Part shown: one piece after another, positions 5,059 to 36,684 of the stretch
How the letters are laid out: each line of letters begins with the position of its first letter
Position numbering within the stretch: the first letter of the stretch is position 1
NCBI RefSeq assembly: GCF_964204645.1
Contig: NC_134033.1
Coordinates: 7,014,655 to 7,078,654 of the forward strand
DNA: 64,000 nt
Reading direction: 5' to 3'
Source: Tubulanus polymorphus
Taxonomy: Eukaryota; Animalia; Nemertea
The notes under the pieces: generated by a model
What the model was told of the DNA's origin: nothing
Seen by the model: the letters and a program-made list of their open reading frames with translations, nothing else
Database searches by the model: none
Made by a program: the position numbers and the translations under genes

Positions 5059-5079
5059 TTAAGAAAAAAGATTTCTTTA

Positions 5080-8127: not shown

Positions 8128-8129
<2 letters not shown>

Positions 8130-8177
<48 letters not shown>
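8130..8177. repeat. (GACA)n microsatellite
   Basis: Direct reading. Confidence 0.9.
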
Positions 8178-8803: not shown

Positions 8804-9422
8804 CACAGGCACTTGAATATGGGCTTTGATAATGGATAAATATTTGATAATTTACCAGCGATACGTTGTTCCTACTGCGATAGATCCGCCATGTATTATA
8901 GTAAATTTACCCATTATGCAACGCGCGCCGGTCGTTTAGCTATACTATACAGAAAGGCTGGAAACGCTCCTATCTCCGTAATGCTTAAATCTACCCGCAG
9001 TTATCGGGACAGCGGTGACGCCACAGCAATCCCGAAGAGGCATCGCGAATTTTCAAAAATCAATTTTGTTGCCATTTAAAATCTTTAATGGAGCTAAAAC
9101 AGTGTCAATGTTTCCAAAAAAATCATCTACAATTGAAATTATGGGCGCTCCTTATATTTCAGGATTAAAATTGACACTAAGGACGTACTTCGCCAATCAT
9201 CGGCAGTGTTCGGCTGTCCCGATAACTGCGGGGAGATTTAAGCATCACGGAGATAGGAGCGTTTCCAGCCTTTCTGTATAGTATAGCTAAACGACCGGCG
9301 CGCGTTGCATCATGGGTAAATTTATTATAAAACATGGCGGATCTATCGCATTAGGAACAACGTATCGCTGGTAAATTATCAAATATTTATCCATTATCAA
9401 AGCCCATATTCAAGTGCCTGTG
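8804..9422. mobile_element. Foldback MITE with ~200-bp TIRs and 7-bp TSD
   Basis: Ends CACAGGCACTTGAATATGG / CCATATTCAAGTGCCTGTG; TSD CTCTACA at 8797-8803 and 9423-9429. Confidence 0.85.
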
Positions 9423-10599
9423 CTCTACACTACCCCGCCAGTACGGGTAGCCGAGCAAACCTTCTTTATCGGTGCAGTGGGTAGATATTTTCAACTGACT
9501 TTCTTCTTCTAAGACATCACCAACACCGCTGCGTCACGATGTGATGTACAAGGGACTCCCAATTTGTAATGTATATGATGTACAAACTGACTTTAGACCG
9601 TTTAATATCGGCGACAACAAGATAACACCGACGCTGACATTTTCTGACGCTAAGTAGAATAACCGCTAATGCGGCCTAATGGAATGGACCAATTCAATTC
9701 AATATAAAAAACGCGTACCGGTACAATAGATAAATAAACCCTGTTGAATTTTCGTAGTATCGATATCCGCAAACAAAACAAATATTATTAGGCCTATAGA
9801 ATGTTTAAAAGGAATTCTTTTTATAACTGAGTATGAATAAACTTATTTCACAAACAAGGAAGTACAGTTTGAACTTGCGAATGGTCGAACCCCAATTATT
9901 CACAGTAACCGGTGATTTGGAAATTCTCGGAGCCTTCCTTTTTCATTTATCTATGAAATGGCGTTACGAACTTCCAGATTGCACAAGTCTGCGCCATGAT
10001 TGGCGATTTCTATTTCCACCGGTGCTATCTTTAAGTAATTTTAAGGTGAAAATAGGATGCACAGTGCATCCATAGAATCTACGCGGATAAAGAGACTGTT
10101 ATATTTCTATCAGAGTTTAACATTTCGTTTAAAAATTGTTAGTGGTCGAATCTGATAGATGATTTTTATTTGACGATACTAAGTGGAAAATATGTTAAAA
10201 TAATAATCAGCAGGAATACAATAGCGTTTCTGCGAAGGCAGCCAGAAACCCTTACAAATGGCACCTGCATTTATTAGTGTTGTAGGACCGGCAATTGTAA
10301 ATACAGTAGCATTTCTGTGGAAGTTATTTATTAAAAAATGAAAAAAATATCGTTCATCAATCTTTCTATGATTCTTAAACCTCAACAATAGAACAACATA
10401 TATTGAAATCCTAAAACTAAAAATTACTACAGTTCGTGTGCAGTGGAGAAATAAAGTACACAACATCTTGGCGCAGCGGCGCGCCGTGCTGATGTAACTG
10501 ATGATGATGGTTCATCAATCACAACCAAAGCGACAAAATTTAACAATAGAAAAACTATAGTGGAGCCAGTGAAGAAAATGGAGAAGACGAAATTATATT

Positions 10600-11155
10600 G
10601 ATTACATAAAAAACAAATGTCATGAAGTGAATACAGTATGCCTCGACAACGAGTTGTTTAAAAAAATCATTGAATATAGTTTTCAAATTTTAACCATGCG
10701 GTGATTTGGCATTATGTATATCCTTATAGTTGAATCTGATTCATACGATGGTATTGTGCACCAGGTTTTCATTTCCTATTCTATCACCGGCAAACTGTAC
10801 TCAGTTTACGTAGATTTTCCTCGTACAATTGTCCCTGGTTTAAAAGCCGTATGCGCTGATTGTAAGCAGCAAAACGTTTTGTGAAAAACGTGTTTTCTAA
10901 TTTGATGAAACAAAACACATGTGGTGTGCGTTGGTGTTTAAACTCGTTAAACGGCAATAATTCCAAATCTTAAGTCTGTTTTGAATTCAAAATTATGAGG
11001 TTAAAAGCTAACGTGATTGTAATTACCTTAAGAAAATTTGCACCCGATGGCCCGAGAATTACGCCTCCAATCACGTAGCCGAACATACATGGTAAATATA
11101 TGATATTGCATATGGCGCTAACCAGAAACGACACGAATACCATTGCAATAATGTC
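10600..11155. repeat. ~550-bp dispersed direct repeat; second copy at ~19528-20075
   Basis: GATTACATAAAAAACAAATGTCATGAAGTGAATACAG...CCATTGCAATAATGTC present at both loci. Confidence 0.85.
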
Positions 11156-11359: not shown

Positions 11360-14300
11360 GAATCAACTAATTTCATACTTATTTCATTTGGCCTCTGTCT
11401 TGTAAGATTTGAACCTTCTTCCCCATGACGATTAGCGGGTAGGCGAATAACTGCTTCAACTTCTCTTCCATTGCCCTATTGAAAGATGATTTTTGATACA
11501 AAGATAGACGGACAGATTAAACAACTACATTTGAAACTGCTTGTTTTAATAAAATTATAACACAACCTCATCGCCAGCAATCGCTTTGTCAAATATATGA
11601 TCATCTAAATCGTTTTCGAGTACGTCCGCTGCTCTGGCAACATCATGCAGGAGCCCATCTACAACTCGTTCTATTTTAGAATCCGCGGTGGTATTTTCGT
11701 GATCCAGTAAAAATATAACAAATTGTTATCGAAATAATTGCAAATATTAGTATCGTTTTCGTCTTTGAGTCAACTTCAATGAAGTATAACGAAGTTAGAC
11801 TTCAAAGTACAATATACATAGTATTATACATATAATACACATATCGATAGACCGATTTCCAATGGTCTGTAAAAATAGCGAATGGCTTACTTGCACATCC
11901 TTTAAGCGATCACCTTCGGCCTTTATAATGTCGTTGTATTCTTGTTGTTCTTTCAGCACTGCATCGTTCAAAGCATCGAGCCTCATTTTACTATTCTTTT
12001 TTATATTTAGAAACTCTTTGAAATTTCCGGAAAGTGCTTCTTCCAGCCAGTTCAAGGCTTCGTATATCAAATTTTCACCGTCATTCAGTTCTTCTTCAAA
12101 TATCTAAATTCAGAGGAAAGTTACGTTTACGACAGGAAAGCATTTGGTAGCTTTGGGTCCGATCAGTAGAGTGATCTGTGTGCATTTGCTGGCCAGCACA
12201 CAGATCACAACGATCATTGCCAGTCAATTCGGCTGGTGATTTTTTGTCAATGTGTGAAAGCGGTTACTGATGAATGCGAGTTAGGAAATCCAAGGAAAAT
12301 GTTAGAAAAATAGGGCGGTGAGGGCAGTATTCAAACCCGGGCTAGCAATTTACAATTGTAGCAAGTTTCCAGGCTTTTGGGATCCATTCTAATGCACTCC
12401 CTGACCCTGCTTGACGCAGCCATCGTAATGTCACGTGAGTGCTTCGTTGAATGATGCGTAGTTTGCAATAGACGTAGACTGGCGCGGTTCCTGAACTTCG
12501 CTGAAAAAGCTGAAACGCTGAAAATGAAACGCTGAAATTTCAGAGAATTCCAGAAAAACGCTGAAATTTCAGGGAATTTCCGAAAAACGCTGAAATCGTG
12601 CTAGGAACCGACGATACACGTTTTGAAAATTTTTCCAAGCCCGGTGTCTGCTGCCGGGTCCTAAACCGTGCTTTTGTCTTTACCGAATTTTTTCGGGTTA
12701 CAGAGATACGCCTACAAGGTCGTTGTCTTCGGCTCCCTTCAACATTTCATTTTCAACTGGCATCAGACCACAATTAATAGGTTAGTAGCTTGAAGATGCG
12801 TATGGCCGGACCATAGTAGCTAGAGTGAAGAAGAGGTAGAAGAGGATGAGATAGTGGTCTGAGCTCAACTTTTGATCGATTGATGGAGGACCTCATTTCC
12901 TTGACAAGAAGAGCCGGAATCTTCAGTTGAATCAGGAGGAACAATAATTGTTCAGGACAAACTGTATAACATGATACCTACTAGCCAAAAATTAGTTCAA
13001 ACTGCAGTTCCAAAAACTACCATCATGCTTCCCCAAAATGGAAAATAAATAAATAATATTTTACTTTCATTTGTCTGTGCATCATGATATAAATTGTTGT
13101 TATGAGCTAACAATGAAGTTTTCACTACATTTGAATAAATTCTTAACTACAGTAATTCTAATTCTCAATTGTTTTTATTATTGTTTGGTTATTCCTTGCA
13201 ACTTCTCATTTCCACGTTTCATACAAGAAGTAGTTGAATGAAAGTACAGTTATGCTGAACCTGACAACCAATGATAAGTGCTAGCATCGAGATTTGATTA
13301 TTTCGATTTTATTTTCGGTGTCATTGAAATTCGTAAATAAAGGTTCAATTGTCATTGTACTTAGCTTAGCTTAGATTGGGTTTCATGTTTCTACATTTTC
13401 TACAAGGAGGCCTTAAAGGGTAGTCCCCGGGTAGAAGTCAAAACTTGGTTTCCATTCTCAATTTGCTGGAGACTACCATCTGCATTCATACCTCGATTTG
13501 TCTGGCCTATGAGAGTCGAACAACATTTTCCCATGCACAGGCTTGGCTTTAGAGTAGATAAAGGCTAGGCACTGCACATTGTGGATTAACTGAAACTCTA
13601 AACTTTCAAAATGAAACGAGTCAACAAGAAAGATCCAATAATTGAACGTTTATCTAACTATATTAATTAACAGCTTAAGAGATATACATTATACATTATA
13701 CACAAAAGAAATCAGTTCTACATTTTATCCGAATCAAGCGTTAAAGCCACAGATTCGCTTAGCTTGGGCTTGAATTCTGGTTCCATTGCATCGTATTCTA
13801 TTGAATATCGCTTAGCTTTTAAAGACTACAAATTTGGTCCCAGGAAAACCAAGTAAAGCGGGGTACTACTGTACATCAGCTGTTGACTTATTTTTCTCTG
13901 GTCGAATCAAGTTATTACTGAATGAAATATAATCACTGCTGCTACAAGAAGTCTTTTCTCAGTATCTGTATGTCCATCTTAGCAAATCAACTTGGTCCAT
14001 GATTCCTTCTTTTAAAAATAAGAATTGTTACATTTTTCTAACAGATGCTATGGCATTTCTTTAAAAAACCTGATGATTTTCTCACCACAGCAAATAAATT
14101 ATTCGCTATTGTTAAATCCATTCCATGCGCAAAATGAATTAAAAAGAAATTAAGTAAAATCCCTTTTGTCCAAAAGCCGCATCATCATTATAACTAGCTA
14201 TCAAATTTAACTTACCTCAAGTCTCCAACAGAGAATACCACAGTCGCCCATAGTCATGCGTGACGTGTTGAAAAGAAAAGTGGTTCTCATAATCATATTT

Positions 14301-15249
14301 ATATACATTGAAATGTTCAAATAAGATTATTTCGTCTTGTAGACGTAAACCACATTCTTGGAATATTCAGCATAGTGTTTAAAGTTGGCTTGTGCGGTTG
14401 TGATAGGGTTTTGATACTCCATACATACTGTTTATGCATGTCTCTATAACCAAAAATTAGGTAGAGACTAAAGCAAAGGTTCAGGACTCGGCAGCGGTCC
14501 CGGCCCGGAAAAAATGAAAAAATGTATTGTCGGTTCCAAGCACGATTTCAGCGTTTTTCGTGAATTCCCTGAAATTTCAGCGTTTTTCGGAAATTCCCTG
14601 AAATTTCAGCGTTTTCTTTTCGGCATTTCAGCGTTTCAGCGTTTCAGCTTTTTCAGAGAAGTTCAGGAACCGAGACTGGCGCAGACATTACAGTAGTGTT
14701 GTTTTGTTTTTTAATGTCCTATCCTTGGAATTGATGAAGATTGATTGAATTTGATTAATAACCTACAACCCCTCATTATTTTCACGAAATTAACTTCTTA
14801 CTGACTACAGATAAGAAACATTGAACGTCTCTTTTTAAGAAATTACCAGGGGTCAATGCGTCGAGCAAAAATTTATGAGCTATGGTTCCTAGCACTATTT
14901 TTACAAATTGTTCGATACAATATGTAGATGAAAAATTTGCAATTCGAGTAGTACGCATTTCGTAGATTTATCAATGTAGATTTACCGTAAACAATTTAGT
15001 TTGCCAATTTCGCTCATTTTCTGATAATTGAGAATTCCTCGATGACCGTTGTATAGCAGAGTGTAGACGAAGAATAACATTTTCTTTTTTTTTAAGAATT
15101 AATCTTATTTGTGGACACAATAGTCGTTTCGTTATCCTTCGACGGCTCAGTGATATTTGAGAATGTAAATTCCTTATTGGTTTGGCAGCTTCCGTAACAT
15201 AGCACATCATGGCCCACGCCAACACCAGGTTGAACATGATATATCGCAT
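11360..15249 (-). CDS. Possible multi-exon gene or pseudogene for a secreted protein (exons ~15249-14987, ~12105-11891, ~11705-11570, ~11480-11380)
   Basis: Signal-peptide-like MRYIMFNLVLAWAMMCYVTEAAKP; downstream acidic/coiled-coil segments with plausible GT/AG borders. Linkage of the exons is not proven. Confidence 0.3.
12165..14960. repeat. Non-autonomous repeat family member with a terminal hairpin, split by the MULE at 12485-14672; related copy at ~32364-32985
   Basis: Hairpin GATCTGTGTGC...GCACACAGATC at ~12173-12206 and ~32405-32437; shared CTAC(A/C)ACCCCTCATTATTTT at ~14763 and ~32529. Confidence 0.5.
12485..14672. mobile_element. Non-autonomous Mutator-like (MULE) element
   Basis: ~230-bp TIRs CGGTTCCTGAACTTC / GAAGTTCAGGAACCG with internal CGCTGAAA subrepeats; perfect 9-bp TSD AGACTGGCG (12476-12484, 14673-14681). 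Confidence 0.85.
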
Positions 15250-15430
15250 TTCGTGGATTCAATGTGCCTGCAACAAAATTCATAAAATGGTAAACATATT
15301 CTGGTCAGGACAATCTTCGAAGAATGAGACGGATTATCACGAGTTCGTAATTAGGGTTTTCTGCTCTTTTGCAGAGAGCCAAATATTTTAAATGAGGATT
15401 TTATAGTTAAATTCAAATGTGAAAATGTAT

Positions 15431-17561
15431 CCCTTACAAAAAATTCACACATGTTATATGTGTGAATAACACACATTACATGTGTGAAAGGTGTGAAAGA
15501 CACAGAAAACACATGTGATTCCAGCTATCACATGTGTGATCTGTGTTGTGGAGCATATCACATGTGTGAATAACACATGCTCACATGTGTGATTCTGAAA
15601 TACATGTGTGATTGAGAAATACATGTGTGATTCACACATGTGATTGGATCAACAACACAGATCACATGTGTAACCGCTAGGATCACACGTGTCATTAGAA
15701 TAACACATGTGATTAACATCAGTTATTCCAATCTACAACACAGTGTGAATTTCGGATATGAACCATTCCCATGTTGGTTCCAAATTCTGAACATCTGCAT
15801 TTTAGTCATAGAATCCATGTTGGAATAAGAATATTTCCATAACTGTACTCTTTATTTCAACATTTTCAACACATGGTTAGATTTTATCTAACACTGACAC
15901 CCCTACTGTGCAAAAACCAAGAACCAATGTCCACGGACTAGTGAGTTTGTATTTTCATTCGGCTAAATAAATAAAATAAGGTTATGATATGTTTTTACAT
16001 TCGCTGTTGAGTTCTAAAAATATATTAATATTCAAAAACGACTTCGAAAAATTAGCAGGTATTTACGGGATTCGAACCGTTGACGACGGCTAGCAAAGGA
16101 CTTGGAATGAGCATGCAGGCACGCACGGCGCCATTTGCAATTATTTCGAGGATTGTCGTTGCTGTTTTTAATCAATTTTGATGGTTAATTTCTTAGTTCG
16201 AAAAGTCTGGTGTTTGAATCCAAGCTCAAAAGCAAGTATTATTGTGTTTCGTCAAATATTCATAGTCGATAATGTTAATTGAATGTACTGTAATCGGTAA
16301 AATCAGTGGCGTGTACCAATCAATCAATTAAATCAAATTCATCCAAACTTTATTTCATGGACATGATTGATGCATTACAAATATTTCATGATTGATGCAT
16401 GCAAAGTACAACATGTCCATGCCTAACAAGTAGGCCTAGATTACACCATGAACTATTTTTTAATCACGATATGTCCAGGAATAAGACACTCGTTTGCATA
16501 CTAGGCCTAATACTATATTGTATAATTCCTAAACTGAACGCTCAGCCGGTATTGAACAGTATTTGCCAATTCTTTCTACATAGGAATGAATCATTTACAA
16601 ATTAAAATGGAATTTTCCGTTATTAATCTAGGGAGTCAGTACATTTCCTCGAGTAGTAATTTATCTACACGGAGAATGAAACGTATACTTTCAGCCGGAA
16701 CAAATTACTGAAAAAGAGGTTTTGAGTCCTGTTATGGTAAGTGTTGATTGAACAAATTTATAAGCTAGTGTTACAATAGCGCCGTTTTTCGTCTGGTTTC
16801 ACTTATCGTAATAATGTAACTTTGGCTTTTTTCATCAGATGATTGATATTAGGGATATTGATTTATTGATTTATTGTTTGGAATTGTGTGTAGTATTTAA
16901 ATGTTTTATAATTTTGTCTCATTCCAGATCATGTTCTGAATTGTAGATTGGGGGTTACCGCGGTCCAAATTAGAAAGAAGATTGGACAAATGCTGAAACA
17001 GTATAAATTTACGAAGTAAATCTGTAAATATTTGAAAATAAAATTCCCATTAACATGTAAGCTTACACAAGTGAGTTATTACATTTGGTTGGTAATTTTG
17101 AAACTTGAGTTGGCAATGAGTTTTTAGGAAATTGTGAAGTATGGATGAAACATCATGTCCAATGAAGGAAGTGGTCAAATTTTGACCATTATGAATGTGT
17201 ACTTATACTTCTTCTTGAATACAGTCGTGTGGAGCTGGAACAATGAGGATGACTGCAGATCACATGCGTTATAAATCACACATAACTGTGTTATATGACA
17301 TGTGTGATTTACATTCAGGGCTGTATCACACGTGTGATTCACATGTGTAAAAATGGGACAAAATCACATGTGTGATTTAGAAAATCACACATGTGATACA
17401 GCTTGAATGTGAATCACATGTGTGATTCACATGTGTAAAAATGGGACAAAATCACACGTGTGATTCACATACAGAATCACATGTGTGATAATATCCCATT
17501 TTTACACATGTGAATCACACGTGTTTTTTAAAAAATCACATGTGTGATTTTTTTGTAAGGG
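15431..17561. mobile_element. Non-autonomous EnSpm/CACTA (CMC)-like element
   Basis: Ends CCCTTACAAAAAA / TTTTTTGTAAGGG, 2-bp AT TSD, dense subterminal CACATGTG repeats at both ends. Confidence 0.75.
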
Positions 17562-17889
17562 ATATCTTATGATTAATAGTAAAATAACATTTGCAAAAGA
17601 CACTCTATTGATTTAGTAATTACCAACTATGGAGAGAGATAATTAGTATCATCGTATATTCGGAATAGTAAGTTTGGCACTCTCTAACATGTCAGTTTAA
17701 CACACACGTCATTGTCACATTGTCACATCCATTATAAATATCTAATAAACATTTTTGAGAGGAGAATAGAACAGAACGGGATTAGAGTGGGAGTTAGAGA
17801 CACGCCGAATAAGTTATGAAACCAACGAGGGCTGACCTGCGAGTCGTGAGCTTTGATATACTTAGATAAATAATATTCAGATCATCGAA

Positions 17890-20299: not shown

Positions 20300-20390
20300 A
20301 GTAATTGGTATATGTGGGTTTCAGATCAGAGGACGAGAGGACGACACACCACTCAACACCACAAGTAATTTTTTCCCATAATGAATGGGA
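20300..20390 (+). repeat. Left TIR of Polinton copy 2
   Basis: AGTAATTGGTATATGTGGGTTTCAGATCAGAGGACGAGAGGACGACACACCACTCAACACCACAAGTAATTTTTTCC is the imperfect inverted repeat of 36593-36684. Confidence 0.9.
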
Positions 20391-20711
20391 GATAGAAAAG
20401 CATGTTTAGCAACAATAAATAACGGAATAAAACCAGCAAAAAAACAATTTTAAATAAAAAAGTTAGTCGATGTTACAAAAGAAATTTAACACAAAATATT
20501 AAAATTAGACAAGATAAAAACTAAATATGGAGAGAAAGTATCAGCAAATTTAAGTTACTGTAATGTAAGTACAACGCGAGAATTTGAAGTATTTTTACCG
20601 GATAAATGGGTTTTATTGAGTACAGAGGAATTAAAAGATTTAGAAGGATTTAAAATAATTCACCATGGGAAAAATGAAAACGGGCATCATGATTTAGAAG
20701 TTGTTGATTAA
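20385..20711 (+). pseudogene. Small Polinton accessory protein, disrupted
   Basis: ATG within the TIR; later segment reads TKYGEKVSANL...FEVFLPDKW...HHDLEVVD*; internal stop and frameshift. Confidence 0.45.
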
Positions 20712-21608
20712 AAAAAAATAAATTGATAATAAAATTAATTAAATATTAAGAATCCGAAATGACTTATCTGGACAATTTGATTGCTCCGCATAGATAGACA
20801 AAAGTAGTGAGATATATAATTAATTAAAAACAAAATATTTTTTTTTGCTTTTTTTCTAAAATATTAATCCATTTCTTTTATTGCGAATTTTGGAATTTCA
20901 GAAGTATTTTCATTTTTGATAGTAGTAGTTTCAGAACTATTAATAACATTTTTTAAACCAACTACACCCAATCAAAATGAATACAATTACAAATCCAGTT
21001 GTAAAATATAAATATTTATCAAGTATTCAATTATCAGAAATAAAAATATTTTCACCATTATTATTAACATTTTCATTATTTATTTTTTCTTTTATAGCTT
21101 TTTTAAATTCTCTCGATTTAATTCCTAATTGCCGAGACCATTCAATTTGTTTCTATGATCTCGGTTTTTTCTTCACAGTTAATTCCTTCACTTCTTCCAC
21201 CAGTCATAACTAAATAATCATTTTCTAAATCGGAATATAATCTATTTTCATCTTGAATTGGTAGCATATATTTACACAATTTACTATAACGTTTTACTAC
21301 ACTTTCTTATATCGCATCATTAATTCTAGCTATTCTCGCAAGTAATAGGGGTAATAGGCTTTCAGTCGAGCGGTCGAGCTCATAAAAAATGAAAAATATG
21401 AAAATAATAACAATTTCTGCTTGAATTAGTCGCGAAACTCATAAAAAATGAAAACTAATTCTCACACACTCGAATTTATTTTTCATTTTTACTCGCTAGA
21501 AAAAAGTGTGAGTAAAGTGTGCCTCAATCCCCCTTTTTTATTAACTTTTATTTTCATACATTTCAACTAATATATTTTATATTTTCAGCTAATTTAACAG
21601 TCGATTTC

Positions 21609-21914
21609 TTATTTTGATTCATATAATTTTTCATCAAGTTCATGAATATACATGTGATTTCTCAAACTCTTTTTATTTTTATATCTTTTATTGCATATTT
21701 CAAAGCATTTAATATTATTCAATCTATCTGAAATATAATTCATATTTTCTATTAATTCAGTGTATCTAATTTTACAGCAATCATAGAATTCTAACAACTG
21801 TTTTATAGTATAAACTGAGAATGAAAATAAACCTGAAATCATAATAATTGATTTAATATTCTGTTGATTTTTATATATTAGATGTAATATTTCTAATACC
21901 TTATTTTCACTCAT
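21609..21914 (-). CDS. Hypothetical 101-aa protein with a hydrophobic segment and a C-terminal C2H2-like finger
   Basis: CFEICNKRYKNKKSLRNHMYIH; intact ORF. Confidence 0.55.
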   Translation of the reverse strand: MSENKVLEILHLIYKNQQNIKSIIMISGLFSFSVYTIKQLLEFYDCCKIRYTELIENMNYISDRLNNIKCFEICNKRYKNKKSLRNHMYIHELDEKLYESK

Positions 21915-21961
21915 TTTTATAGTTAAAATATATAGAATAAATTAAATTAAAAGATGCTGTT

Positions 21962-22180
21962 TTAATCCTCCAAATCATTTAAATCATTAACTTTTTTATT
22001 GTTATTCTTTCTGTGATTGTTTCCATTTAACTTCTTTAATTTCTTGCTCAATTTTATATTTTCATTAATCAAATCCTTACTGATATTTTCATAATAAAAG
22101 AAAAGCGCAGCCAATATTAATCCGCCTGCTACTAAATAATGTTTCAAATCACTTTTCCCAGTCGGGATGAAACCATCCAT
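21962..22180 (-). CDS. Hypothetical 72-aa single-pass membrane protein
   Basis: YLVAGGLILAALFFYY hydrophobic stretch, then basic/coiled-coil tail; starts in AATTTTTCTCTTAAATAAATG context. Confidence 0.6.
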   Translation of the reverse strand: MDGFIPTGKSDLKHYLVAGGLILAALFFYYENISKDLINENIKLSKKLKKLNGNNHRKNNNKKVNDLNDLED

Positions 22181-22289
22181 TTATTTAAGAGAAAAATTAA
22201 ACAGTTTATATAATATTTGCTAGTTTTTAATTAAATATTTTATAATCATTTTAAAAATATTAAACTTTTAAATGATTAAACCAAATAAC

Positions 22290-22785
22290 AATTAAATTTA
22301 CAGCCAAACAATTTAACATTTCAACAGTCTAACAATTTAACATTTCAACAGTCAAACAATTTAACATTTCAACTGTCAAACAATTTAACATTTCAACTGT
22401 CAAACAATTTATCATTTCAACTGTCAAACAATTTACCATTTCAACTGTCAAACAATTTATCATTTCAACTGTCAAACAATTTATCATTTCAACTGTCAAA
22501 CAATTTATCATTTCAACTGTCAAACAATTTATGATTTCAACTGTCAAACAATTTATCATTTCAACTGTCGAACAATTTATCATTTCAACTGTCAAACAAT
22601 TTATGATTTCAACTGTCAAACAATTTATCATTTCAACTGTCGAACAATTTATCATTTCAACAGTCGAACAATTTATCATTTCAACTGTCAAACAATTTAT
22701 CATTTCAACTGTCAAACAATTTATCATTTCAACTGTCAAACAATTTATCATTTCAACTGTCAAACAATTTATCATTTAAACAGTC
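22290..22785. repeat. 24-bp tandem array, ~19-20 units (TCATTTCAACTGTCAAACAATTTA)
   Basis: Direct reading; the minus strand is open as (MINCLTVE)n. Confidence 0.95.
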
Positions 22786-22837
22786 TATTAGATATTTCAA
22801 TCATTTAACTCAATTCAATAATTATAATGTAGAATTG

Positions 22838-23488
22838 TTACTCTTTACGCCAGTTTTTATGTTTAATTGTTTCATAATGCTTTGATTTATGTGATTTTAA
22901 ATATTTAAATCCGCAATAACAATGCACTTTTTCATTAGGATTGAATTTTCTAAATTCATCATCTAAATTACATTGAACTGCAATATCTTTAAATGATTTT
23001 TCATTATCTAATTCACATTGAATTCCAATATTTGATGAATTTTCATTATAGATAATTTGTTTATTATCAAAATTGAAATAATATAATTGTCTTTTTTCAA
23101 TTCTTAAGTTAATCAAATCAATGTAATCTTTTGAAAGTATTATATCATCATTTCTTTCATTGAAAGGAGTTTTAAGAATATTAATTATGTTTTCATCTAA
23201 AGTTCCTTTAAAATTTAAAACTGTATTGAACAATTTAGGATTTTTAACACCATTATCAAAAGTATCAATTAGTTTAGTAATTAAATATGTTTCATTTGAT
23301 AATATTTGATTAATTACAGTAATATTTTCAATTTTATAATGTCTTGCGGACACTAAATTTGTTGCTGAAATATAATTTTTAATGTTAAACTGTGAAAATG
23401 ATTTATTGGTTTCATTGATTTCGATTTTAAACTTGGGTTCTTCTTCTTCTTTCTTCATTTTTATAACAAAATTTTTATTAAAACTCAT
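22838..23488 (-). CDS. Hypothetical 216-aa protein with a C-terminal zinc finger
   Basis: VHCYCGFKYLKSHKSKHYETIKH resembles the fingers at the PolB N-terminus; duplicated IGIQCELD/IAVQCNLD motif; intact ORF in AT-rich DNA. Confidence 0.65.
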   Translation of the reverse strand: MSFNKNFVIKMKKEEEEPKFKIEINETNKSFSQFNIKNYISATNLVSARHYKIENITVINQILSNETYLITKLIDTFDNGVKNPKLFNTVLNFKGTLDENIINILKTPFNERNDDIILSKDYIDLINLRIEKRQLYYFNFDNKQIIYNENSSNIGIQCELDNEKSFKDIAVQCNLDDEFRKFNPNEKVHCYCGFKYLKSHKSKHYETIKHKNWRKE

Positions 23489-24087
23489 TCAAATATAAAT
23501 ATTCAATGTTTTAAATATGAATTATTTCACTCACACTTTTATATTGCATAATCTATCAATTTATATGTTATTCATATATATTTTATTCATGTATATGAAT
23601 ATTTTAAGAGTAATAGGGGTAATAGGCTTTCAGGTTAAAGGTTGAATGGTCGAGTTCATAAAAAAATGAAAAATATGAAAATAATAACAATTTCTACTTG
23701 AATTAGGAGTGAAACTCATAAAAAATGAAAAATAATTCTCACACGCTCGAATTTATTTCAGTCACACTTTACTCACACTTTTTTCTAGCGAGTAAAAATG
23801 AAAAATAAATTCGAGTGTGTGAGAATTATTTTTCCTTTTTTATGAGTTTCGCGACTAATTCAAGTAGAAATTGTTATTATTTTCATATTTTTCATTTTTT
23901 ATGAGCTCGACCGCTCGACCTTTGATTTGAAAGCCTATTACCCCTATTACTCTCGCAGTTTCATAAATCTTAAAAAATTTAATAATTTCATCTGATTTCA
24001 TTGTATCTAATTCATTATAAGTTAAATTTTTACTAATAAAACATTTACATTTCCCAGATGCTATTAATATTTCTACTTGATTCTAGA

Positions 24088-25129
24088 TTAACAGTTTTTG
24101 TTTTTAATACTTTTTCAATTTTATATTCTTGTTCTAGATTTTCAGTAGTTAAACTTAATTCGTCGTCATAAAAGTACCCATCAACTTCTTCACCATCTAA
24201 ATCTCCTAATTAATGTACATATGGTTTTGTTGTTATTACCTTTTTTATTTTATAGATTTTTCTAGTAAAATTACGATCGTATCCTTTGTCAAATATCTTT
24301 TTATACTTAGAATTTCTAACATTTTGACCAACTTTAAATTTCCAAAAATCACCAAAATCATCTACAAGAAATGCTCCATATAAATTAGTCCAAACAATTT
24401 CAGCATTTTCAGGTTCTCTAGCATCGATAGGTTTCATTGCAATAGAAGAATGATAAGAATTATTATAACCTTCTATCAATTTTGGTAAAACCTCAATCCA
24501 TTTAAAAGTATCATTTGCTGTAAAATATTTTCACATTCTTGTTCTTAATGTTCTATTAAATCGTTCAACAACTGCCGCTTTTTATCCGATTTTGTTGAAA
24601 AATATTCAATATTATGATTATCGAAGAGTTCATGAACTACTGAATTATCAAATTCTTTTCCATCATCAAATTGTATTTTTTCTGGCTTTATTTTACCACC
24701 TGAAAACAATTTTTTAGAAACTAATGATGTTTGTGCAGCATCTTTTCTATAAAGTTTGAAGCTCCATGCATAACGACTAAAAATATCAATTATGTTTAAG
24801 ATCCACCAATAATCATCATTATCTTTCTTAACATTTTTCATGTCAATTAAATCTCCTTGCCACTGTTGATCTACATAACTTACCATTGTTTTACGAGTTT
24901 AATATTTTCTAACAATTTTTTTATGTGTTGTATATGTTGGTTGTTCTAACATAAATTCATTCATATGTTCATATTTAACTAAATCTTGTGGGATTATCTT
25001 ATCTAATTTATCTTGTTTTACTTGACGCCATATATTTTTGGTAGAAGAATAAGCAACCGAACTCTCAGGGTTATGATATAAATTTCTTAAATATTGTTCT
25101 TTAGTATTTCGAGTTTTTTTACCCCCCAT
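24088..25129 (-). pseudogene. rve integrase of copy 2, disrupted, chromodomain truncated
   Basis: QWQGDLIDM, IIDIFSRYAW, KIQFDDGKEF, VVERFNRTLR (after frameshift), YNNSYHSSIAMKP, KFKVGQNVR. Confidence 0.92.
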
Positions 25130-25159
25130 TTATATATCGTAATGTTCAACTTTATATTT

Positions 25160-26350
25160 TTAATATTGAATATTATGTGATTGAGAATTTACGATATTTA
25201 ATTGCGCATCAGATATGATATAAATGTGTATTTTGAAATTTCTTATTCCTTTTTTCTGTTTCATGAGTAATTGTATCCCATCTTTAGTGTTCTGTAATCT
25301 TTTCCCAGAACCAGGCAATAAGTTATCCTCTGTTGTTCTAAAAACTAACCATAGTGCATATTTATTACCAGTATAGTAATCAATTTGATCAATATTACAA
25401 TTTTCAGATGATTTTACTTTTTCATTCATATAATGTTTTCTAATTTCTGGCCATTGATCTATCATTCTCATTCCTTGGCAAAATATTTTATTTGCTATAC
25501 CTTCAATTGTTATTTCTTCTTTTAATATTTCTGGGTTATAATAATTATCAACATTTATTGCACCATTAGAATATGTAGCAATGGTAAAAAAATATTACTA
25601 CACCTTTAATAGTTCTTCTTGGGAAGTTAATATTCTCATTAATTATTTCATCATTTGCATTAATAGTGACAATTTTAAATTTATCAATATAATCATATAC
25701 TAAGGAAAATCCTTGATCATATTGTGTTTGAATTGTGCTAGCAATATTTTCATCAGTTACTGTATCATATTCTAAACATATATTCGATAATTTATAATCC
25801 ATATCTTTAACAACGCTAGATAATACAATTTCATTAAAAGGAGCAAATGTTATTTCGAATATAATATCTTCTTGAATTGCGTATTCATATAAAGGTCCAT
25901 TATTATTTATCAATTCAAAGTCTAATGGAATTTTATATTTGCTTCCATAAATATTCTTTATCAAATCATCTGCAGCATTAGTTACTATTGCGTCATTATT
26001 TCTATTTTCTTTTGTTAACCTTAAATCTTTATAATGCATAAATAAATTATAATCATCTAATGAAAAAACTGTTTCTGTTCCAATCTTTATAGCTAATTTT
26101 TTAATTAGATATCTCCCAACATTATCAAAACATAATTATCATCATGGCCAGTAACTTTTATATGGGCTGATAAATAAATACTATTTGGAACATAAAAAGT
26201 ATGTTGATTTAATCTCGGGATTTTAACATATAAAGTTTCATCAGGATTAATATTAGAAGGATTATGAGTAATTATATGATGAGATCTCTCTGCTTTAATA
26301 GCATTAGATATTCTAGAATTCTTAGAAGGATTTATATAACTCCCGCTCAT
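25160..26350 (-). pseudogene. Probable major capsid protein (double jelly-roll), split into three ORFs
   Basis: ~400 codons, beta-strand rich (THNPSNINPDETLYVKIPRL, KYKIPLDFEL, LSNICLEYDTV), next to the integrase. Fold is inferred from context and remembered family pattern. Confidence 0.7.
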
Positions 26351-26370
26351 TTATTTAACAAAAAAATTAA

Positions 26371-27825
26371 TTATTTATTTTTTATCATATTCACTAACCC
26401 AAAAATAATAGCACTAACAATTGTAATTAAAAATAAAATAATATGTTCAGCAGCAAAACTAAGAATATTTCCAGCAGATTTTAATACAAAACCAACAATT
26501 GATGCTATAACTCCGGGTAAAGCTGCAGCAGATTTTTTAGATAGTTCCCATAGATATTTTGCTAATTTTTTTAAACCATCTTTAACTTTATCTTGTATAG
26601 AATTATTATGACTTGGAGGTTTATCCGGTTTATTGGGTGTAGGCGTAGATTTTAATGAATTTGAAATAGCTAAACCAATTGTTGTAAATAACATAGTTAC
26701 AGCTGTTAGAATTGAAAGAATTGTTATACCTTCTAGTTTGAATAATAATTTTATTCTATCTTTTAATGATATTTCAGAATTTGGTTTTATCAACAAATCT
26801 TTAAAAATAACTTTTAACGTATTAATATTATAATCATATGATTTTAATGATAATTTAATTTCTTCTTTCTGTAATTCTATGTTATATTCTAAATCATCTT
26901 TTCCTTTTTCTAAATATGCATTTCTTTTTTTAAATTTAATTTCTTCAATAACTTTATTATCTCCATCTAATTTTAATTGTTCTATTTCTTTAATTTTATC
27001 AGTTCTATCTTTTTCTAAAGTTCTAATTTTAAAATCTCTTATACTTTTATCATGCGCAATTTCATCAGATGCAAGTCTTATTACTTATAATTTCTCTAAT
27101 TGCTTTATCAGAAAATATATCTAATTCTTCTAATTCTTGATCTGTTGCGTCAAGTAACCCATTTGGTAAAAGTTTTTCGATTGGAACTTTATTTGATTTA
27201 AGTTTACTAGTTTTGGAAGTTATATCCTGTTCAGAAGTTGTGTCTGTTTCTAAATTATTTTTGATTATTTCAAATAATTCATTAATTCTTTGTTTAAATA
27301 CTCTTTTTTATTTATTTCTGTGTCGGTAACATTTTCTATTTCATTGCTATTACTTATTCTTTTTATTCTAGATGATTCTAAATTATTCAAAGTTGATTCT
27401 GCTAATATTTTGTTTTGATTCTTATAAGTGATATTAATATAATAATCATCTTTAAAATGATAGTTATATTCACCATCTAAAGATTTTGATTCTTGTACTA
27501 AATATCTGGCACCTCTATCATTTATATCATATCCAGATTTTTCAAATATAGGTTTAAAATTATTTATATATTCATTATATTCTAAATGCTGTCTTACTAA
27601 ATCTGGATTTTCATTTTCAATATTTATTCTCCGTCCAGCTCTTCTATCAAAATCGCCTGTTGTTATTATATTATCATTAAAACCACTATCCGCTAAATTA
27701 TTATTATATTCTGGCATATTACCGTCATTAAAACTTGTTTCATTAAAATCAGGTGGTTGTTCTTCAGTTATGCCGGGTTCATCAAAAGTATCCATTCCAA
27801 TATCTTCTCCACCTTCTACATCCAT
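26371..27825 (-). pseudogene. Long acidic/coiled-coil protein with C-terminal hydrophobic helices
   Basis: ORFs 27265-27825 and 26371-26796 linked by disrupted charged sequence; GITILSILTAVTMLFTTIGLAI and AAALPGVIASIVGFVL. Confidence 0.65.
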
Positions 27826-27844
27826 TTATATAATAAAAAAATTA

Positions 27845-29228
27845 ACATTAAAAATAAAATATTCCTCCTATTACAATTCCTTTACAAGTAATAGCTAATT
27901 TAGTATTTTTCATGTGATTTATTATCATTATTACTTTTAATTATTTCATGTTGAATATTATCCGTTTTTATATTTTCTGTAGTATTGTTATCTTTTATTT
28001 AATTATCATTATCCAATTTAATATTTTTAGTTTTAGTTTCAGTTGATTGAATATGCTTTTTAATTTTTTCACCTTCCATTTGTTTTGTAGCAGTAATAAT
28101 CTTTTTATTAATATCATTTAATCCAAACTTATTATTTTTTGTTGCCGTTTTAATCAGATTATTATGACCAATTATATTTCCGATTTTTAATATCAAATCA
28201 TTTGAAATAATTAACAAATTAGGGCCTATACAATAATTTAATTTTACATGCGATTTATCTAAATAATTTTGGTACCTAACTATGTTTTCTGGAATCGATC
28301 TATTTTTATCATTATGAATTTAATCTTCAAATAATACTTTGAATTGTTTTTGTGTATCAAATGATGTATTTAAATTTCCAATTATCGGGGATCTTGTTTC
28401 AACTTGTGATCCGAGAATACATATCAAATAAGCTCTAATTGATTGATTCATTCTTTGTATACCAGCTTTAGTAAAACCTTCACTATTTTCTAAAATAAAA
28501 TAAACCCAACCATTATTGTTTTCTTGTTTTAAATTATCATAGAATTTCGGTAATTTATTAAAATTTAATGTTTCTAAATCCTTAGTTTCTATTTAACCAT
28601 AACCTAATTTATTATTATAGATATTATAAAAACTATTAGATGGTATGGGAAGTGTGCAATATTCTGCAATTTTTTTAGGGCAAGGAAGTGACCTTATCGT
28701 TCCAAGTTTTGTTTTAAAATCAGAATGATTTATATCTATATTAAATTCATTACAAATTTTATAAAAATTTGATGAATTAATATTATTATTTAATTCTAAA
28801 ATACCTAGATCCTGGTAAAGGGGTCTCTAATTCATTTGATGTCAATCTTATTTGAAAACAAGTATGGAATCTAAATAAACTTTGAATTAATTTATATTTT
28901 GAATTATTTAAATGACCATTCCAACGAATTCCACATCCTGTCGTTGCACAATACACTGCACAATTTAATTGGTTCTGCCAATACTTCATATTAGATTTCA
29001 ATAACCATTGTTTTTCATATTTCATTTTTCAAAAATTAATTAGATATACATGAAATATATTTTCCAACTTTGCATTAAAATTATTAGTTTCAGTAACATA
29101 ATATCTAAATTAATTAATGAAATTTAAACTTCATCCCTATATGAAATATCTTTATTAAAATCTTTTGCTGGAATATTATATTTAATTGATTTATTATAAT
29201 GAAAAGCTTTTGATAAACTATCTACCAT
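27845..29228 (-). pseudogene. Polinton hypothetical protein, disrupted
   Basis: Starts MVDSLSKAFHYNK after TAAATG; contains YWQNQLNCAVYCATTGCGI; hydrophobic C-terminus. Confidence 0.55.
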
Positions 29229-29241
29229 TTATATAAAAAAA

Positions 29242-29676
29242 TTAATAATTTATTAATTCTTTTAATAATTTATCCTGTTCTTCAACTGTTATATTACCAT
29301 TTAAACTCATTATATAATCTAATGTATTTTTTAATTTATTAATTTCATTTATATTAGATTTTATTTTTTCTTTATAACTTTTTATATTTAATTTTGACCT
29401 TATGCCGGTTAATATACTTGAACTTAAACCTAAAGCTCCAATTGAGATAGCTAAAGGTGTTAATGATGAGAATATTGCTAGAAATGTTATTACAGAATTA
29501 ATTGTAACTGAACTACTAATAATAAAATAATATATAATTTTACTTTTGAAATATTTTTTCTTTTTAATTTTTAAATCATTTTCAAATTCTAATAGTTGTT
29601 TTTCCAAATATAATCTTAATAAAGTTTTATTTATATCATGAGGAATAATATCAACATTATCAACTTTATCATCCAT
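29242..29676 (-). CDS. 144-aa protein with two predicted TM helices flanked by coiled coils
   Basis: IIYYFIISSSVTINSVITFLAIFSSLTPLAISIGALGLSSSILTGI; intact ORF with TAAATG start. Confidence 0.7.
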   Translation of the reverse strand: MDDKVDNVDIIPHDINKTLLRLYLEKQLLEFENDLKIKKKKYFKSKIIYYFIISSSVTINSVITFLAIFSSLTPLAISIGALGLSSSILTGIRSKLNIKSYKEKIKSNINEINKLKNTLDYIMSLNGNITVEEQDKLLKELINY

Positions 29677-29699
29677 TTATTTAGAAAAGAAATTACTAA

Positions 29700-30118
29700 T
29701 TAGTTAATTTATAAGCAACAAATAATACAATAACTGTTCACCCTAAAAATCCAAATTATTTCATATTTCTGTTGTTCTTTTTTGGGGTATAATAATCTGA
29801 TAATTTAGGTTTGTATAGATGTAATTTTTCTTTATTGGTTACTGCGTTATATAAACTCATAGCTTCATCAACTGATTGAAAATCTCTATGTGTAATTTTC
29901 TGATCATATAATTCTTTGTTAATATAATCCATATAATTTTGTCTCTTTTCTCCATATTCTTCTGCAGCTTTATTGTATTTCTCTAATGCTAAGTTATGTC
30001 TTCTTTGTTCTCCTAATGAACTATTTTTATCAATGTGCTTAAATAAATAACCACCACCAGTAAATGCTTAAGCGTTAACAATTGCTGACCCTATTATAGT
30101 TATAATATCAGATGCCAT
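29700..30118 (-). pseudogene. Small Polinton membrane-associated protein, disrupted
   Basis: MASDIITIIGSAIVNA*AFTGGGYLFKHIDKNSSLGEQRRHNLALEKYNK. Confidence 0.55.
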
Positions 30119-30124
30119 TTATTT

Positions 30125-30362
30125 AGTAAAAAGATTATTTATCGATATAGGAGGAATATATTTTGTTTTTTAAAATAATCAATTGTTAAATTAGATAAAG
30201 TTACTGCTAATGTGAATTTTAATTTATCATTGATATCAAATTTATCAACATAAATACTTCCCATTCTAAATACTTTTTTTAATACCATTGTATAACCAAA
30301 GTTCCCGCAGATAATAATGCTCCATTATATAAACCAGTTATTATCCACTTCTGATCCGCCAT
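30125..30362 (-). pseudogene. Small hydrophobic Polinton protein
   Basis: MADQKWIITGLYNGALLSAGT...VLKKVFRMG...KLKFTLAVTLSNLTIDY with a frameshift; TAAATG start. Confidence 0.5.
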
Positions 30363-30716
30363 TTATTTTAGAAAAAAATTACTCTCTTCAAAATATTTAG
30401 TTAACTTACTTATAATTATTTCATCATTTATAATATTATTAGTTTCATTTTCATATATATCAGTTATTATTTTTTTAATATCATTAATAATAAAATCTTC
30501 ATCTAATTCATAAAATCTTAAAGACTCTCTAATTAAATCAGTAATCTTTTCTACATAAAAAGTTTCTTTATCTAATGTTGTTTCATATTCAAATGACGTT
30601 TCATTAAAAAAATGTAATATTTTTAATATGTGTTATTACATCGTTAATGTTGAATTTCATTTCTTTCTCACGTCTAAAATCAAATCCAAAACATATACTC
30701 GGTCCTACTGTTATAT

Positions 30717-31486
30717 TCATTGTGGAAAAATTACTTTACATCTTATAACTAATTCATAAATTACTGGAAAGTTATTCAAATCAATTAAGTATCCATTATG
30801 ACTTCTAATTTCTAATTTAAAATTGTTGAATTGAGGAATACAAGGTTTAAAATCACATTCAGCTAAATAATAATTTATTTGAGTTCCAAATTGTTTAACA
30901 TTTTTTAATGTTAAAATATTTAATATACTAGAATTACAAATTGTATCTTTAGTTGCTTCGAAAGTTTTTACAGGGTCAATTAAATTGCAATAAATATAAA
31001 AGTGTGTAAAAGGCATTAAGATTGGTGTAGCTTCGGCATTACGTTTCCTTACATCTGGGTTAATTCCTAACAGTTTTGCTATAGGTTTTTTAACCATAAA
31101 TTGATGTTCTGATATCATTAGCTAACTTTATTTTTACTTTATTATTGATATCACTTTTAAAAAATTCAATTCCAAATCAAAAACCCTCCCATTGTTAAAA
31201 GAGCTCTTTTATTAATTTCTTGCGCTAATGTTTCTAGATTATATAATCCAGGTTTTAAAAATAGATGATACCATTTATTCAAATTTCTAGCATGAACTAA
31301 AAAAGCTAAATGATCAGGACTTTTATTTGATATTTTGTAAAAAGAGTTACATACACTTACATTTACTTATCTTAAATCTACACAATTTTTAAATTCTCTA
31401 TCTTATTGTACTAGTAAATTATGTGATTTATAATATGTAAGTTTTCTAGAATCAACAAATATTCTATATTCTTTTAATTCAACCAT
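30717..31486 (-). pseudogene. Probable minor capsid protein (penton, single jelly-roll), disrupted
   Basis: AKLLGI...FYIYCNLID...FKLEIRSHNGYLIDLNNFPVIYELVIR is the typical C-terminal pattern; start MVELKEYRIFVDSRK at 31486. Confidence 0.7.
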
Positions 31487-31554
31487 TATTTATAACACAA
31501 AAAAATTACCTCGAACCATTAGATATTAATTTTAATAAAATTTTTCCTAAATAA

Positions 31555-32363
31555 ATGGATGAGAAGATAGAATGTGAAATTTGTGGCGACCTTCAAAGAA
31601 AAAGTAATATGGCTTGAAATATGAAAAAACATGATAAAAATTATAAACCCCCTAAATAAACTGCCCAAATTGTAATATATTGTTCTCAAGAAATCATGTT
31701 AAAAAAATTCAGAGAAGTGTAAAATTAATGATCCAACGGTTAATGTTGATAGTAACGAAAGTAATAATATTTCCGTTGAAACTGAACCTTAAATTTTTTG
31801 GAAAAAACCTTTCTCATTCTATGATAAGAATAATATAAAAGATCATTTCTGTGAGCCTTGTCGAATAAAATATAGCCCTGAAAATATGGAAGATTTGGAA
31901 AATCATCAATTTCGTAAAGCACATATAGATAAAATTTCTAATAAATTTGAAGCAGAATTCAATGAAAGAAAAAATAATATATTAGAAAACATAAACTATG
32001 AGAAAACGTTGCCAGATAATGGAAAAACAATATGATGAATTAGTAAGAAAAAAATATTATTGCAAATATTGTAAATTGATTATTACAACAATTAATTCAA
32101 ATCTACATAATAAAACAATAAAACATAAAGAAAACGTAAGAAAATACCAAGAACTTAATGAAGATCTATCACCAAGATATGATAGAAAAAAATGCCCACA
32201 ATGTATCTATGTGTACTTAAGACAAGAAGATTCTGTGATATTTTGTAATGAATGTGGATGGCAAAGAAATTTATGGGGTGATGAAAAAACTAGAGATATT
32301 CTTATAGAACCAAAATTAAAATATCCAGGAAGAAAGACACTAAATATTTGGATGGATATATGA
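31555..32363 (+). pseudogene. Multi-zinc-finger protein(s) of the Polinton, divergently transcribed
   Basis: MDEKIECEICG; YYCKYCKLIITTINSNLHNKTIKH; zinc ribbon CPQC...FCNECG. Confidence 0.6.
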
Positions 32364-32985
32364 AAGCTGTGGGTACTGGAGTGTGTAATGAATAGTGTAG
32401 TGCGATCTGTGTGCATTTGTGGCCAGCACACAGATCACATGGTTCATTGGGGTTTGGTCCAGGACTCGCGAGATTTTCAACAACACGGAAGTAACGTGTA
32501 ATAAATGATGACTCGAATTGCATGACTACCTACCACCCCTCATTATTTTTGGAAAACTAAACGTTACGCACTGACTCAAAATTAGTAATAGCATTTTAGA
32601 AATTGCCAGAATTTTAACTTAGGTTCTATCTCATTTTTATTTAACAATTGCCATTGGTATAATCTTTTTTTAAACGGCCGTTAAGGCTTCATGTTTCGTC
32701 TGCAATTCACTGCAAATAGTTGGGCAACTACGCACATTTCAGTGTTTTTGGCAGCTGTACACTCAATCGGCACCGTTCGTGACTAGCTTCACTGCGGAAT
32801 TATCATTAATTAACATCGCCATATCACATCATCAACTTATATTGTGCCTTAAAACCCTAACAGCCGAAATAATTGAAATGCACACACAATTTCTATCATT
32901 GAAAATTGAGAGAGTGGCCATGTTTGTGTTCTACTGCTTCGCGTAAATACCGCGCGGAGTGAGTGGGGCCGTTACGTCTAGATGA
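32364..32985. mobile_element. Host repeat inserted into the Polinton
   Basis: Abrupt rise in GC; shares hairpin and internal motif with 12165-14960. Boundaries approximate. Confidence 0.55.
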
Positions 32986-33199
32986 AATTTTTAAGATATT
33001 TTCTATGGAAGATCATACACCAGAATATAAGCAATGGCTTGAAAAAATGAAAATGATAGAAAATAAAAACGGTGAAATAACTAAGAAAGATATAATAAAA
33101 ACAATTATTCCATCAACATATAACACAAAAGAAGAGAAAATTTATCTATATTTATTATTTAACGATTATTATAAAAAACCTAAATGAACAAAAGAAGAT

Positions 33200-33499
33200 A
33201 TGGAAAATATAAAAGAAACATTCACAAACATATTAAAATATTATGTGGATAATAAAATAACAGATTCAATTAACTATGAATTCTGTTTAAATAAGATCGT
33301 AAATTTTTTAAACATCGATATTTTAATTCCATTTGATGAATTAACGAACAAAGAGAAACAAAGAGAGCGAGATGAAATGTGGAATAATATAGAATTTTAT
33401 TTAAAAGAGAAAAATGAAATGGAAGAACCTAAACAATTAAATAAATATGATGAAACCAGTAGTGATTTCGAGTATGATGATATTGATTTTCTTTTGTAA
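33200..33499 (+). CDS. Hypothetical acidic 99-aa Polinton protein (preceded by a ~60-aa ORF at ~33005-33187)
   Basis: Intact ORF with AT-rich viral-like composition. Confidence 0.45.
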   Translation: MENIKETFTNILKYYVDNKITDSINYEFCLNKIVNFLNIDILIPFDELTNKEKQRERDEMWNNIEFYLKEKNEMEEPKQLNKYDETSSDFEYDDIDFLL

Positions 33500-33509
33500 T
33501 GGCCATAAG

Positions 33510-34053
33510 GTAATGTTCTTTATTATTATTATTATTTCTTTATTCTTTCTAATGATTTCAAATCTTGATTGCATAAATACAATATTGAGTGCGACTAACA
33601 TAATTATACACACCTGCTGAACCATCGCCCATAAAAAATCCTTTGATAAAATATTCTTTTTCTTCTAATGTTTCAGGTTCTATGTTATAAATATTATCAA
33701 TTATTTCATCAAATGACATATGATTCATTGTTGGGTAAAATCTCTTATGTAATAATTCCTCTCCAATTTTTATATCAGTTGGTTTTATTTCATCACCATT
33801 ATTTCTAATTAAACTATGATCTTCTGTAACATCAACAAACCCAAATTTAGTTCTAACTCTATAAATTCTTTTATTTGTTAAATAAAATTGTATTTTTATA
33901 TGTCTAATTATATTCGTTAATTTTTTCCATCCATTTATCCATTTATTTGTATTAATTTATTAGTTCATTTTGTTTTGAAATTATTTCTGAAATTCTTCTA
34001 ATTAATATTTGATTTTTGTATTTTAATGATATTGGGGTATCAGCTGTTACAGA
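33510..34053 (-). other. Intein (N-terminal Hint blocks plus start of a LAGLIDADG homing endonuclease) inserted in PolB motif C, truncated
   Basis: Block A SVTADTPI right after YFD; after a frameshift, GWKKLTNIIRH...KRIYRVRTKFGFVDVTEDHSL (TxxH at 33816-33827), IKPTDIKIGEELLH, and FIKGFFMGDGSAG (33621-33641). Confidence 0.88.
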
Positions 34054-36599: not shown

Positions 36600-36684
36600 T
36601 TATTAGGAAAAAAAATTACTTGTGGTGATGAGTGGTGTCTCGTCCTCTCGTCCTCTGATCTGAAAGCCAACTTTTCCAATTACT
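36593..36684 (-). repeat. Right TIR of Polinton copy 2, overlapping the polB start codon
   Basis: Reverse complement reads AGTAATTGGAAAAGTTGGCTTTCAGATCAGAGGACGAGAGGACGAGACACCACTCATCACCACAAGTAATTTTTTT. Confidence 0.9.

Follow-up and report, generated by a model that had tools for sequence, protein, structure and literature searches.

Structure of the element

A 64,000-nucleotide stretch of the genome of the nemertean Tubulanus polymorphus (contig NC_134033.1, positions 7,014,655 to 7,078,654 of the forward strand; hereafter the window, numbered from its first letter) contains, inside a decayed Polinton (also called Maverick) at 20300–36684, a 2611-bp insertion at 21341–23951, which is a real and abundant non-autonomous element of the Polinton family with genes of its own and a doubled, hairpin-forming right end. 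The element starts with AG, ends with CT and is bracketed by exactly matching copies of the target-site duplication (TSD) CTCGCA at 21335–21340 and 23952–23957. A sister Polinton copy at about 722–6006, which is 69–83% identical to the host Polinton in the aligned pieces, aligns across the insertion point with a single CTCGCA at 2143–2148, the empty site. The terminal inverted repeats (TIRs) are T1 on the left (21341–21527, plus strand, 187 bp, starting with AG) and T3 on the right (23757–23951, minus strand, 195 bp, ending with CT), and they share 182 identities, with 5 mismatches and one 8-bp gap. The original prediction for this locus, made from the sequence alone, had given a 2611-bp element with AG...CT ends, a perfect 6-bp CTCGCA duplication, TIRs of about 180 bp and an empty site at 2143–2148; its coordinates proved exact and the other features were recovered with the TIR lengths given above. 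The element ends read AGTAAT, as do the ends of the host Polinton, whereas vertebrate Mavericks differ in having (AGT)2 or (AG)3. The motif CTCACAC occurs eight times in the window, six of them within the element, five in its termini and one upstream of the open reading frame (ORF) called A below.

A third terminus, absent from the original prediction, lies internally at 23609–23758 (T2, plus strand). It has the orientation of a left end, starts exactly at AG and forms a hairpin with T3, turning the right end of the element (23609–23951) into a fold-back of 343 nt with a calculated energy of −136.7 kcal/mol (z −26; 0 of 100 shuffled sequences). T2 and T3 agree at 137 of 149 positions and thus are less alike than T1 and T3 (182 of 187). 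The CTCGCA duplication belongs to the whole 2611 bp and not to a mini-element made of T2 and T3, as T2 is preceded by TTTAAG.

Genes and tandem array

The interior of the element holds three ORFs, all on the minus strand, with a tandem array between the first two. ORF A (22838–23488) encodes 216 residues, or 206 from the likely start at 23458, and has a C-terminal CxC...H...H zinc finger, the rest of the protein belonging to no known family. The 50 residues at its end resemble small CxC...H...H fingers that occur repeatedly (four matches in the representative library, E 4e-6 to 3e-4), and no other part of the three proteins was matched in that library. ORF B (21962–22180, 72 residues) is predicted to contain one membrane segment and has a basic tail; its single hydrophobic stretch reaches a KD19 maximum of 1.48, which is borderline. 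ORF C (21609–21914, 101 residues) carries a C-terminal C2H2-type zinc finger, whose zf-C2H2 match (E 1.5e-4) falls below the curated Pfam cut-off. The array at 22305–22785 consists of 20.0 copies of a 24-bp unit with 96% match; several frames are open across it, as expected of a short repeat unit, and these were rejected as genes. The two zinc-finger genes, the membrane gene and the 24-bp array are thus as originally predicted, with the reservation on the membrane stretch of ORF B just mentioned.

The ORFs had also been described as not obviously derived by deletion from the host element, and indeed tblastn gave no match better than E 0.4 for any of them elsewhere in the window, both Polinton copies included. 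Among proteins of similar length no full-length homologue was found for ORF A (388 candidates), ORF C (2 candidates) or ORF B. Atlas had no match to ORF A at 0.9 or more and PHROGs none better than E 0.018. A search of viral_contigs with ORF A, ORF B, the terminal pattern or the host fragments of polymerase, integrase and capsid gave no locus. The terminal pattern had a single match in metagenome_contigs (L001), which shows no further likeness to the window and was rejected as chance. A single-sequence fold prediction for ORF A was too poor to be used (mean pLDDT 31.7). All frames of 40 or more residues in the element were listed, and among the five longest ones scanned no integrase or polymerase B domain was found, consistent with the claim that the element has no mobility enzymes of its own.

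Several traits connect the ORFs with Polinton genes. ORFs A–C share with the genes of the host Polinton the sequence before the ATG, their codons are AT-rich, and zinc fingers of the kind they encode also occur in host ORFs. When start contexts are scored with a matrix from four hand-picked host starts, ORF B, ORF C and the second ATG of ORF A rank 1, 2 and 3 of 84 ATGs; with an unselected matrix from all 15 host ORFs the starts of the element rank 1, 3 and 7 of 84.

The element belongs to a dispersed family

Reads were taken from one raw DNA run (X5, of which 12% was read) and three contig sets and aligned to two stretches flanking the 24-bp array. The element is one copy of a dispersed and abundant family with several subfamilies and many insertion sites. 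At its right end (23951/23952) X5 contains 1505 and 350 loose ends whose flanks are heterogeneous (agreement 0.34–0.35); about 1100 terminal reads belong to a second family described in the next section, and roughly half of the terminal reads, by a rough estimate, come from the family of the element. Mean X5 depth is 416 over ORF A, 186 over ORF B and 183 over the 5' part of ORF C. It falls to 85–105 over the 3' part of ORF C and the spacers, reaches about 2000 at the terminal peaks and is of comparable size, at 328, over the host Polinton; all of these are relative values, as X5 offers no single-copy baseline. In X1 single contigs have a depth of 26–48, as compared to totals of about 2,300–11,000 at most of the listed sites, suggesting a copy number of the order of a hundred, albeit summed contig depth is not itself a copy number.

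The fold-back right end also varies among copies. At least four shortened forms of its loop occur (skips of 138, 74, 75 and 73 nt; 596 reads), and the form with the 138-nt skip is symmetric with arms of 103 and 102 bp. T2 is joined to the region upstream of ORF A in 524 X5 reads, the joined DNA resembling the sequence of the window offset by a short duplication. Since this number is about the depth of ORF A itself, the joint of ORF A and T2 is the common form, indicating that on the T2 side ORF A is mostly found without core Polinton genes. Furthermore, some 350 reads have mixed flanks before 23609, to which reads from T1 could contribute; they suggest that free mini-elements consisting of the T2+T3 fold-back exist.

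Terminal homology and a candidate helper

How is an element without enzymes copied and inserted? The outermost bases of its ends point to Polintons. The first 47 nt of T3 find 28 or more matching positions at only 6 of 127,906 positions in the window, and all six are termini: T3 itself (47), an end at 63740 (42), T2 (40), the right end of the host Polinton (35), T1 (34) and the left end of the host Polinton (33). The two families thus related to the element share different lengths with it. About 47 bp are common to the element and the host family at 70–74% identity. The family whose end lies at 63740 shares its first 57 bp (63740–63796, plus strand) with the element at about 88% and then diverges; T3 and this end are also identical at 45 of 50 positions. 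Only 260 bp of that family are inside the window. It is another abundant family (459 and 641 junction reads) and may be either the helper of the element or a second satellite. Behind its Polinton-type end, 63740–64000 contains a hairpin at about 63897–63970 and runs off the window; this region is abundant in the reads.

Judged by these comparisons the ends of the element are homologous to Polinton ends. A 6-bp TSD is a hallmark of Mavericks, and TIRs starting with AG are likewise defining (PMC8097293). Since the element has both features and its ends match Polinton termini, insertion by a Polinton integrase is likely.

Could the element nevertheless belong elsewhere? Other superfamilies with 6-bp duplications exist, IS3EU for example, and the locus might then hold a cut-and-paste element of such a superfamily, or a chance union of a miniature inverted-repeat element with unrelated DNA. 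The probable existence of the 343-bp fold-back as a free unit, with heterogeneous flanks before 23609 in 350 reads, would suit such an origin. The homology to Polinton termini, however, is in register from base 1, the TSD brackets the whole 2611 bp while the mini-element is preceded by TTTAAG, and the likeness of T1 to T3 extends over 187 bp, farther than the 150-bp arms of the mini-element reach. We consider an origin of this kind very improbable.

More attention is due to the proposal, made in the original prediction, that the element is a parasite of the Polinton in which it sits, mobilised in trans. Movement in trans is likely, given Polinton-type ends and the lack of enzymes. Parasitism of this particular host fared less well. 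A dedicated parasite would use the integrase of the host family and prefer that family as target, and the insertion inside a Polinton gene, the empty site in the sister copy and the 33–35 of 47 terminal bases shared with the host ends are what one would expect to see. Yet the ends are nearer to the 63740 family (42 of 47 and 45 of 50), from which we infer that the helper is probably not the landing family, and the flanks of other copies are heterogeneous (agreement 0.34). Moreover, the host copy was already older when the element arrived. Sites at which the copy in the window differs from at least 90% of reads number at least 6 in 1592 bp of the element versus at least 22 in 1233 bp of the host Polinton, indicating a young element copy in an older host copy. 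A dedicated parasite of the host family is thus unlikely, and the helper is more likely the family ending at 63740, or a relative of it, to judge from terminal likeness.

Selection among copies

The variants classified were the 33 in ORFs among 40 listed of 158, the other 7 listed being non-coding, and the 6 in ORF A among 40 listed of 352, the other 34 listed being in the host. Among copies, ORF B shows purifying selection, and the prediction thereby withstood one of its own refutation tests. Twelve of its 15 listed variants are synonymous and 13 are at third positions (pN/pS 0.05–0.09, P 2e-7 to 3e-5). Of the listed indels that fall within ORFs, the two common ones preserve the frame, one of 3 nt at 21899 (52 of 179 reads) and another of 3 nt at 23438 (82 of 422), while frameshifting indels, among those listed, occur in at most four X5 reads or in single contigs each. 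An apparent stop in ORF C is accompanied by an adjacent change present in the same share, and the two likely represent a double change in one codon.

The original prediction had pointed out that the ORFs of the element are open while the surrounding Polinton is decayed. This is true but uninformative, as it is expected from the youth of the copy. In neutral simulations all three ORFs stay open in 53% of cases at 0.4% divergence and in 21% at 1%, and open frames in this copy were discarded as evidence of selection.

A probably helper-dependent element with its own genes

Taken together, our preferred reading, held with moderate confidence, is that this is an abundant element of several subfamilies with Polinton-type ends, three small genes and no enzymes, which is likely copied and inserted in trans and likely keeps at least its membrane gene for its own spread. 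In this mechanism the conserved outer 47–57 bp would be the signal recognized by the integrase and the protein-primed polymerase of a helper Polinton. T1 and T3 would be the working pair of ends, since their likeness (182 of 187) exceeds that of T2 and T3 (137 of 149). The T2+T3 fold-back is likely a copy-back-type derivative of the same ends, which likely inserted 150 bp upstream of ORF A, whereupon the outer end of the inserted mini-element would have become the new right end. ORFs A–C are likely transcribed in step with genes of the helper, because they have the same sequence before the ATG as the host genes. The weakest step is what the proteins do. It could be imagined, and this is speculation, that the two zinc-finger proteins bind the ends of the element at the CTCACAC motif and favor its replication, and that the membrane protein of ORF B acts on packaging or excludes competing elements.

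Several observations weigh against this reading. Purifying selection, which the original prediction proposed to look for in all three ORFs, was found in ORF B, and the zinc-finger genes gave no clear signal of it. ORF C has 5 synonymous and 13 nonsynonymous changes among 18 listed variants (pN/pS 0.5–0.9, not significant), and ORF A has only six listed sites, of which the three at intermediate frequency are all third-position, too few to judge. The reads cannot separate short copies from full-length Polintons, and the selection on ORF B may be that of an autonomous parent. The copy in the window has begun to drift, as four of its nonsynonymous sites differ from at least 97% of reads, three of them in zinc-finger motifs. 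In the searches run, no homologue was found that would back any function for the proteins of ORFs A, B or C. As to the start-codon context, the motif had been noticed prior to testing, and it served to choose the second ATG of ORF A. Finally, depth is about 185 in ORF C and only about 60–110 at the junction with T1, so half or more of the ORF C copies are not traced to T1, and since ORF A has twice the depth of ORFs B and C, some of its copies may lack the other two genes.

These depths also speak for an alternative in which ORFs A–C come from an autonomous Polinton absent from the window, where they would form a terminal block of accessory genes, the 2.6-kb element being a deletion or alternative-end derivative of it and the selection on ORF B being inherited or read from full-length copies. 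Accessory gene regions flank the core in most vertebrate Mavericks (PMC8097293), and the Polinton-style start context, the AT-rich codons and the similar zinc fingers of host ORFs would follow naturally from such a descent. The fall in depth at the junction of T1 and ORF C and the twofold depth of ORF A fit as well, and T2 has its first base precisely at AG, which is what insertion of a mini-element would produce. On the other hand, ORFs A–C match neither Polinton copy in the window, and the joint between ORF A and T2 is found at about full depth. Six X5 loose ends of at least 19 reads are listed in 21490–22300, and none among them marks a point at which many reads leave ORF C sharply for other DNA; that closest to T1 (29 reads) looks like the spacer of the window. 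As regards a possible origin of the interior as an uninterrupted stretch of a Polinton, the interior has no match to the host family and its ORF A side is joined to T2, while on its ORF C side the depth halves. Descent from an accessory block is the strongest of the alternatives; we consider it possible, though less likely than the preferred reading.

Comparison with known systems

The element shows the features of non-autonomous Polintons, namely a 6-bp TSD, AG...CT TIRs homologous to Polinton ends and dispersed copies with different flanks. We take the N in the family name Polinton-1N1_DR to mark a non-autonomous family. The name itself is in print (PMC9341505). Non-autonomous Polintons in Repbase have in common with the element Polinton ends, the lack of their own mobility enzymes and a presumed movement in trans; candidate differences are the three small genes of the element, one of them under selection, and its hairpin-forming doubled right end. 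A literature search found no gene-carrying non-autonomous Polinton; the original description of Polintons, the Repbase entries and supplements were outside its scope, and absence from print is not established by it.

With autonomous Polintons and Mavericks the element shares the 6-bp TSD, AG-starting TIRs of a length within the range of 46–1447 bp and intronless small accessory genes (PMC8097293, PMC3014272, PMC6431247). It differs in size, 2.6 kb versus 13–25 kb, and in lacking integrase, polymerase, ATPase, protease and capsid genes. The likeness to a transpoviron drawn in the original prediction extends to a small linear DNA with TIRs, no capsid, dependence on a larger element and a gene for a small zinc-binding protein (PMC5499653). 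Transpovirons, however, are about 7 kb long, depend on mimiviruses and encode a superfamily 1 (SF1) helicase fused to an inactive polymerase domain (same source), none of which the element has. The analogy fails at the SF1 helicase, as the longest frame of the element, ORF A with its 216 residues, has no helicase match.

Phage satellites and copy-back defective viral genomes borrow the replication of a helper and may carry genes of their own. The element can be likened to them by a borrowed replication, and the T2+T3 hairpin has snap-back geometry. The likeness would be one of analogy, as there is no homology and the element is eukaryotic and presumably integrated by a Polinton integrase.

Significance

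As a rule, genes are lost from transposons that are non-autonomous. Retention of a selected membrane gene by a Polinton derivative that depends on a helper would imply a stage, likely extrachromosomal or packaged, at which the gene benefits the individual copy bearing it, and it bears on the question whether animal Polintons still run a virus-like cycle. The 47–57 bp common to otherwise different families point to a minimal end signal; in its variability the terminal hairpin offers a natural record of how such elements replicate. A further step would be that animal Polintons have true satellites, a long-lived 2.6-kb lineage that hijacks polymerase, integrase and perhaps capsid, expresses its own zinc-finger and membrane proteins from Polinton-type promoters, has diversified under selection and has never had mobility enzymes. 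This we propose only tentatively and regard as on the unlikely side. If true, the lineage would correspond, among eukaryotes, to phage satellites and would rank one tier below virophage-like elements. If instead ORFs A–C are a passenger block from a full-length Polinton, the element would be an ordinary derivative with an unusual end.

The host Polinton and other features of the window

The host Polinton contains fragments of integrase (rve, E 1e-8), major capsid (Capsid_N, E 0.001) and polymerase genes and has TIRs of about 94 bp that are 87% identical. Its ends are flanked by AATATA and TTCTCA and thus lack an intact TSD; the copy may be recombinant or decayed at the ends. The polymerase fragment gave no match in the library, PDB or plasmid searches, and its polymerase B motifs were identified by eye. 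At 33558–34824 this fragment seems to be split at its catalytic motif by an intein-like stretch, also judged by eye and without a library match. Host ORFs at 29242–29676 and 33188–33499 have a weak match to the two-membrane-helix domain SLATT (E 0.003) and a match to poxvirus VLTF3-like proteins (E 7e-7), respectively. The host genes starting at 26350, 27825, 29676 and 36599 (all on the minus strand) have, immediately upstream of the ATG, a run of T and then a TAA-rich motif, an arrangement that, to our mind, recalls poxvirus late promoters.

Elsewhere in the window there are three more inverted-repeat elements at 8804–9422, 12485–14672 and 15428–17564, comprising a fold-back whose 210-bp arms agree at 97% and two elements that have TIRs and, next to these, subterminal tandem repeats. 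The regions 39713–42479, 50200–53500 and 56593–58561 hold a LINE-like endonuclease/reverse transcriptase, a BEL/Pao-like long terminal repeat element and a 90-bp satellite, respectively, as labelled by eye.

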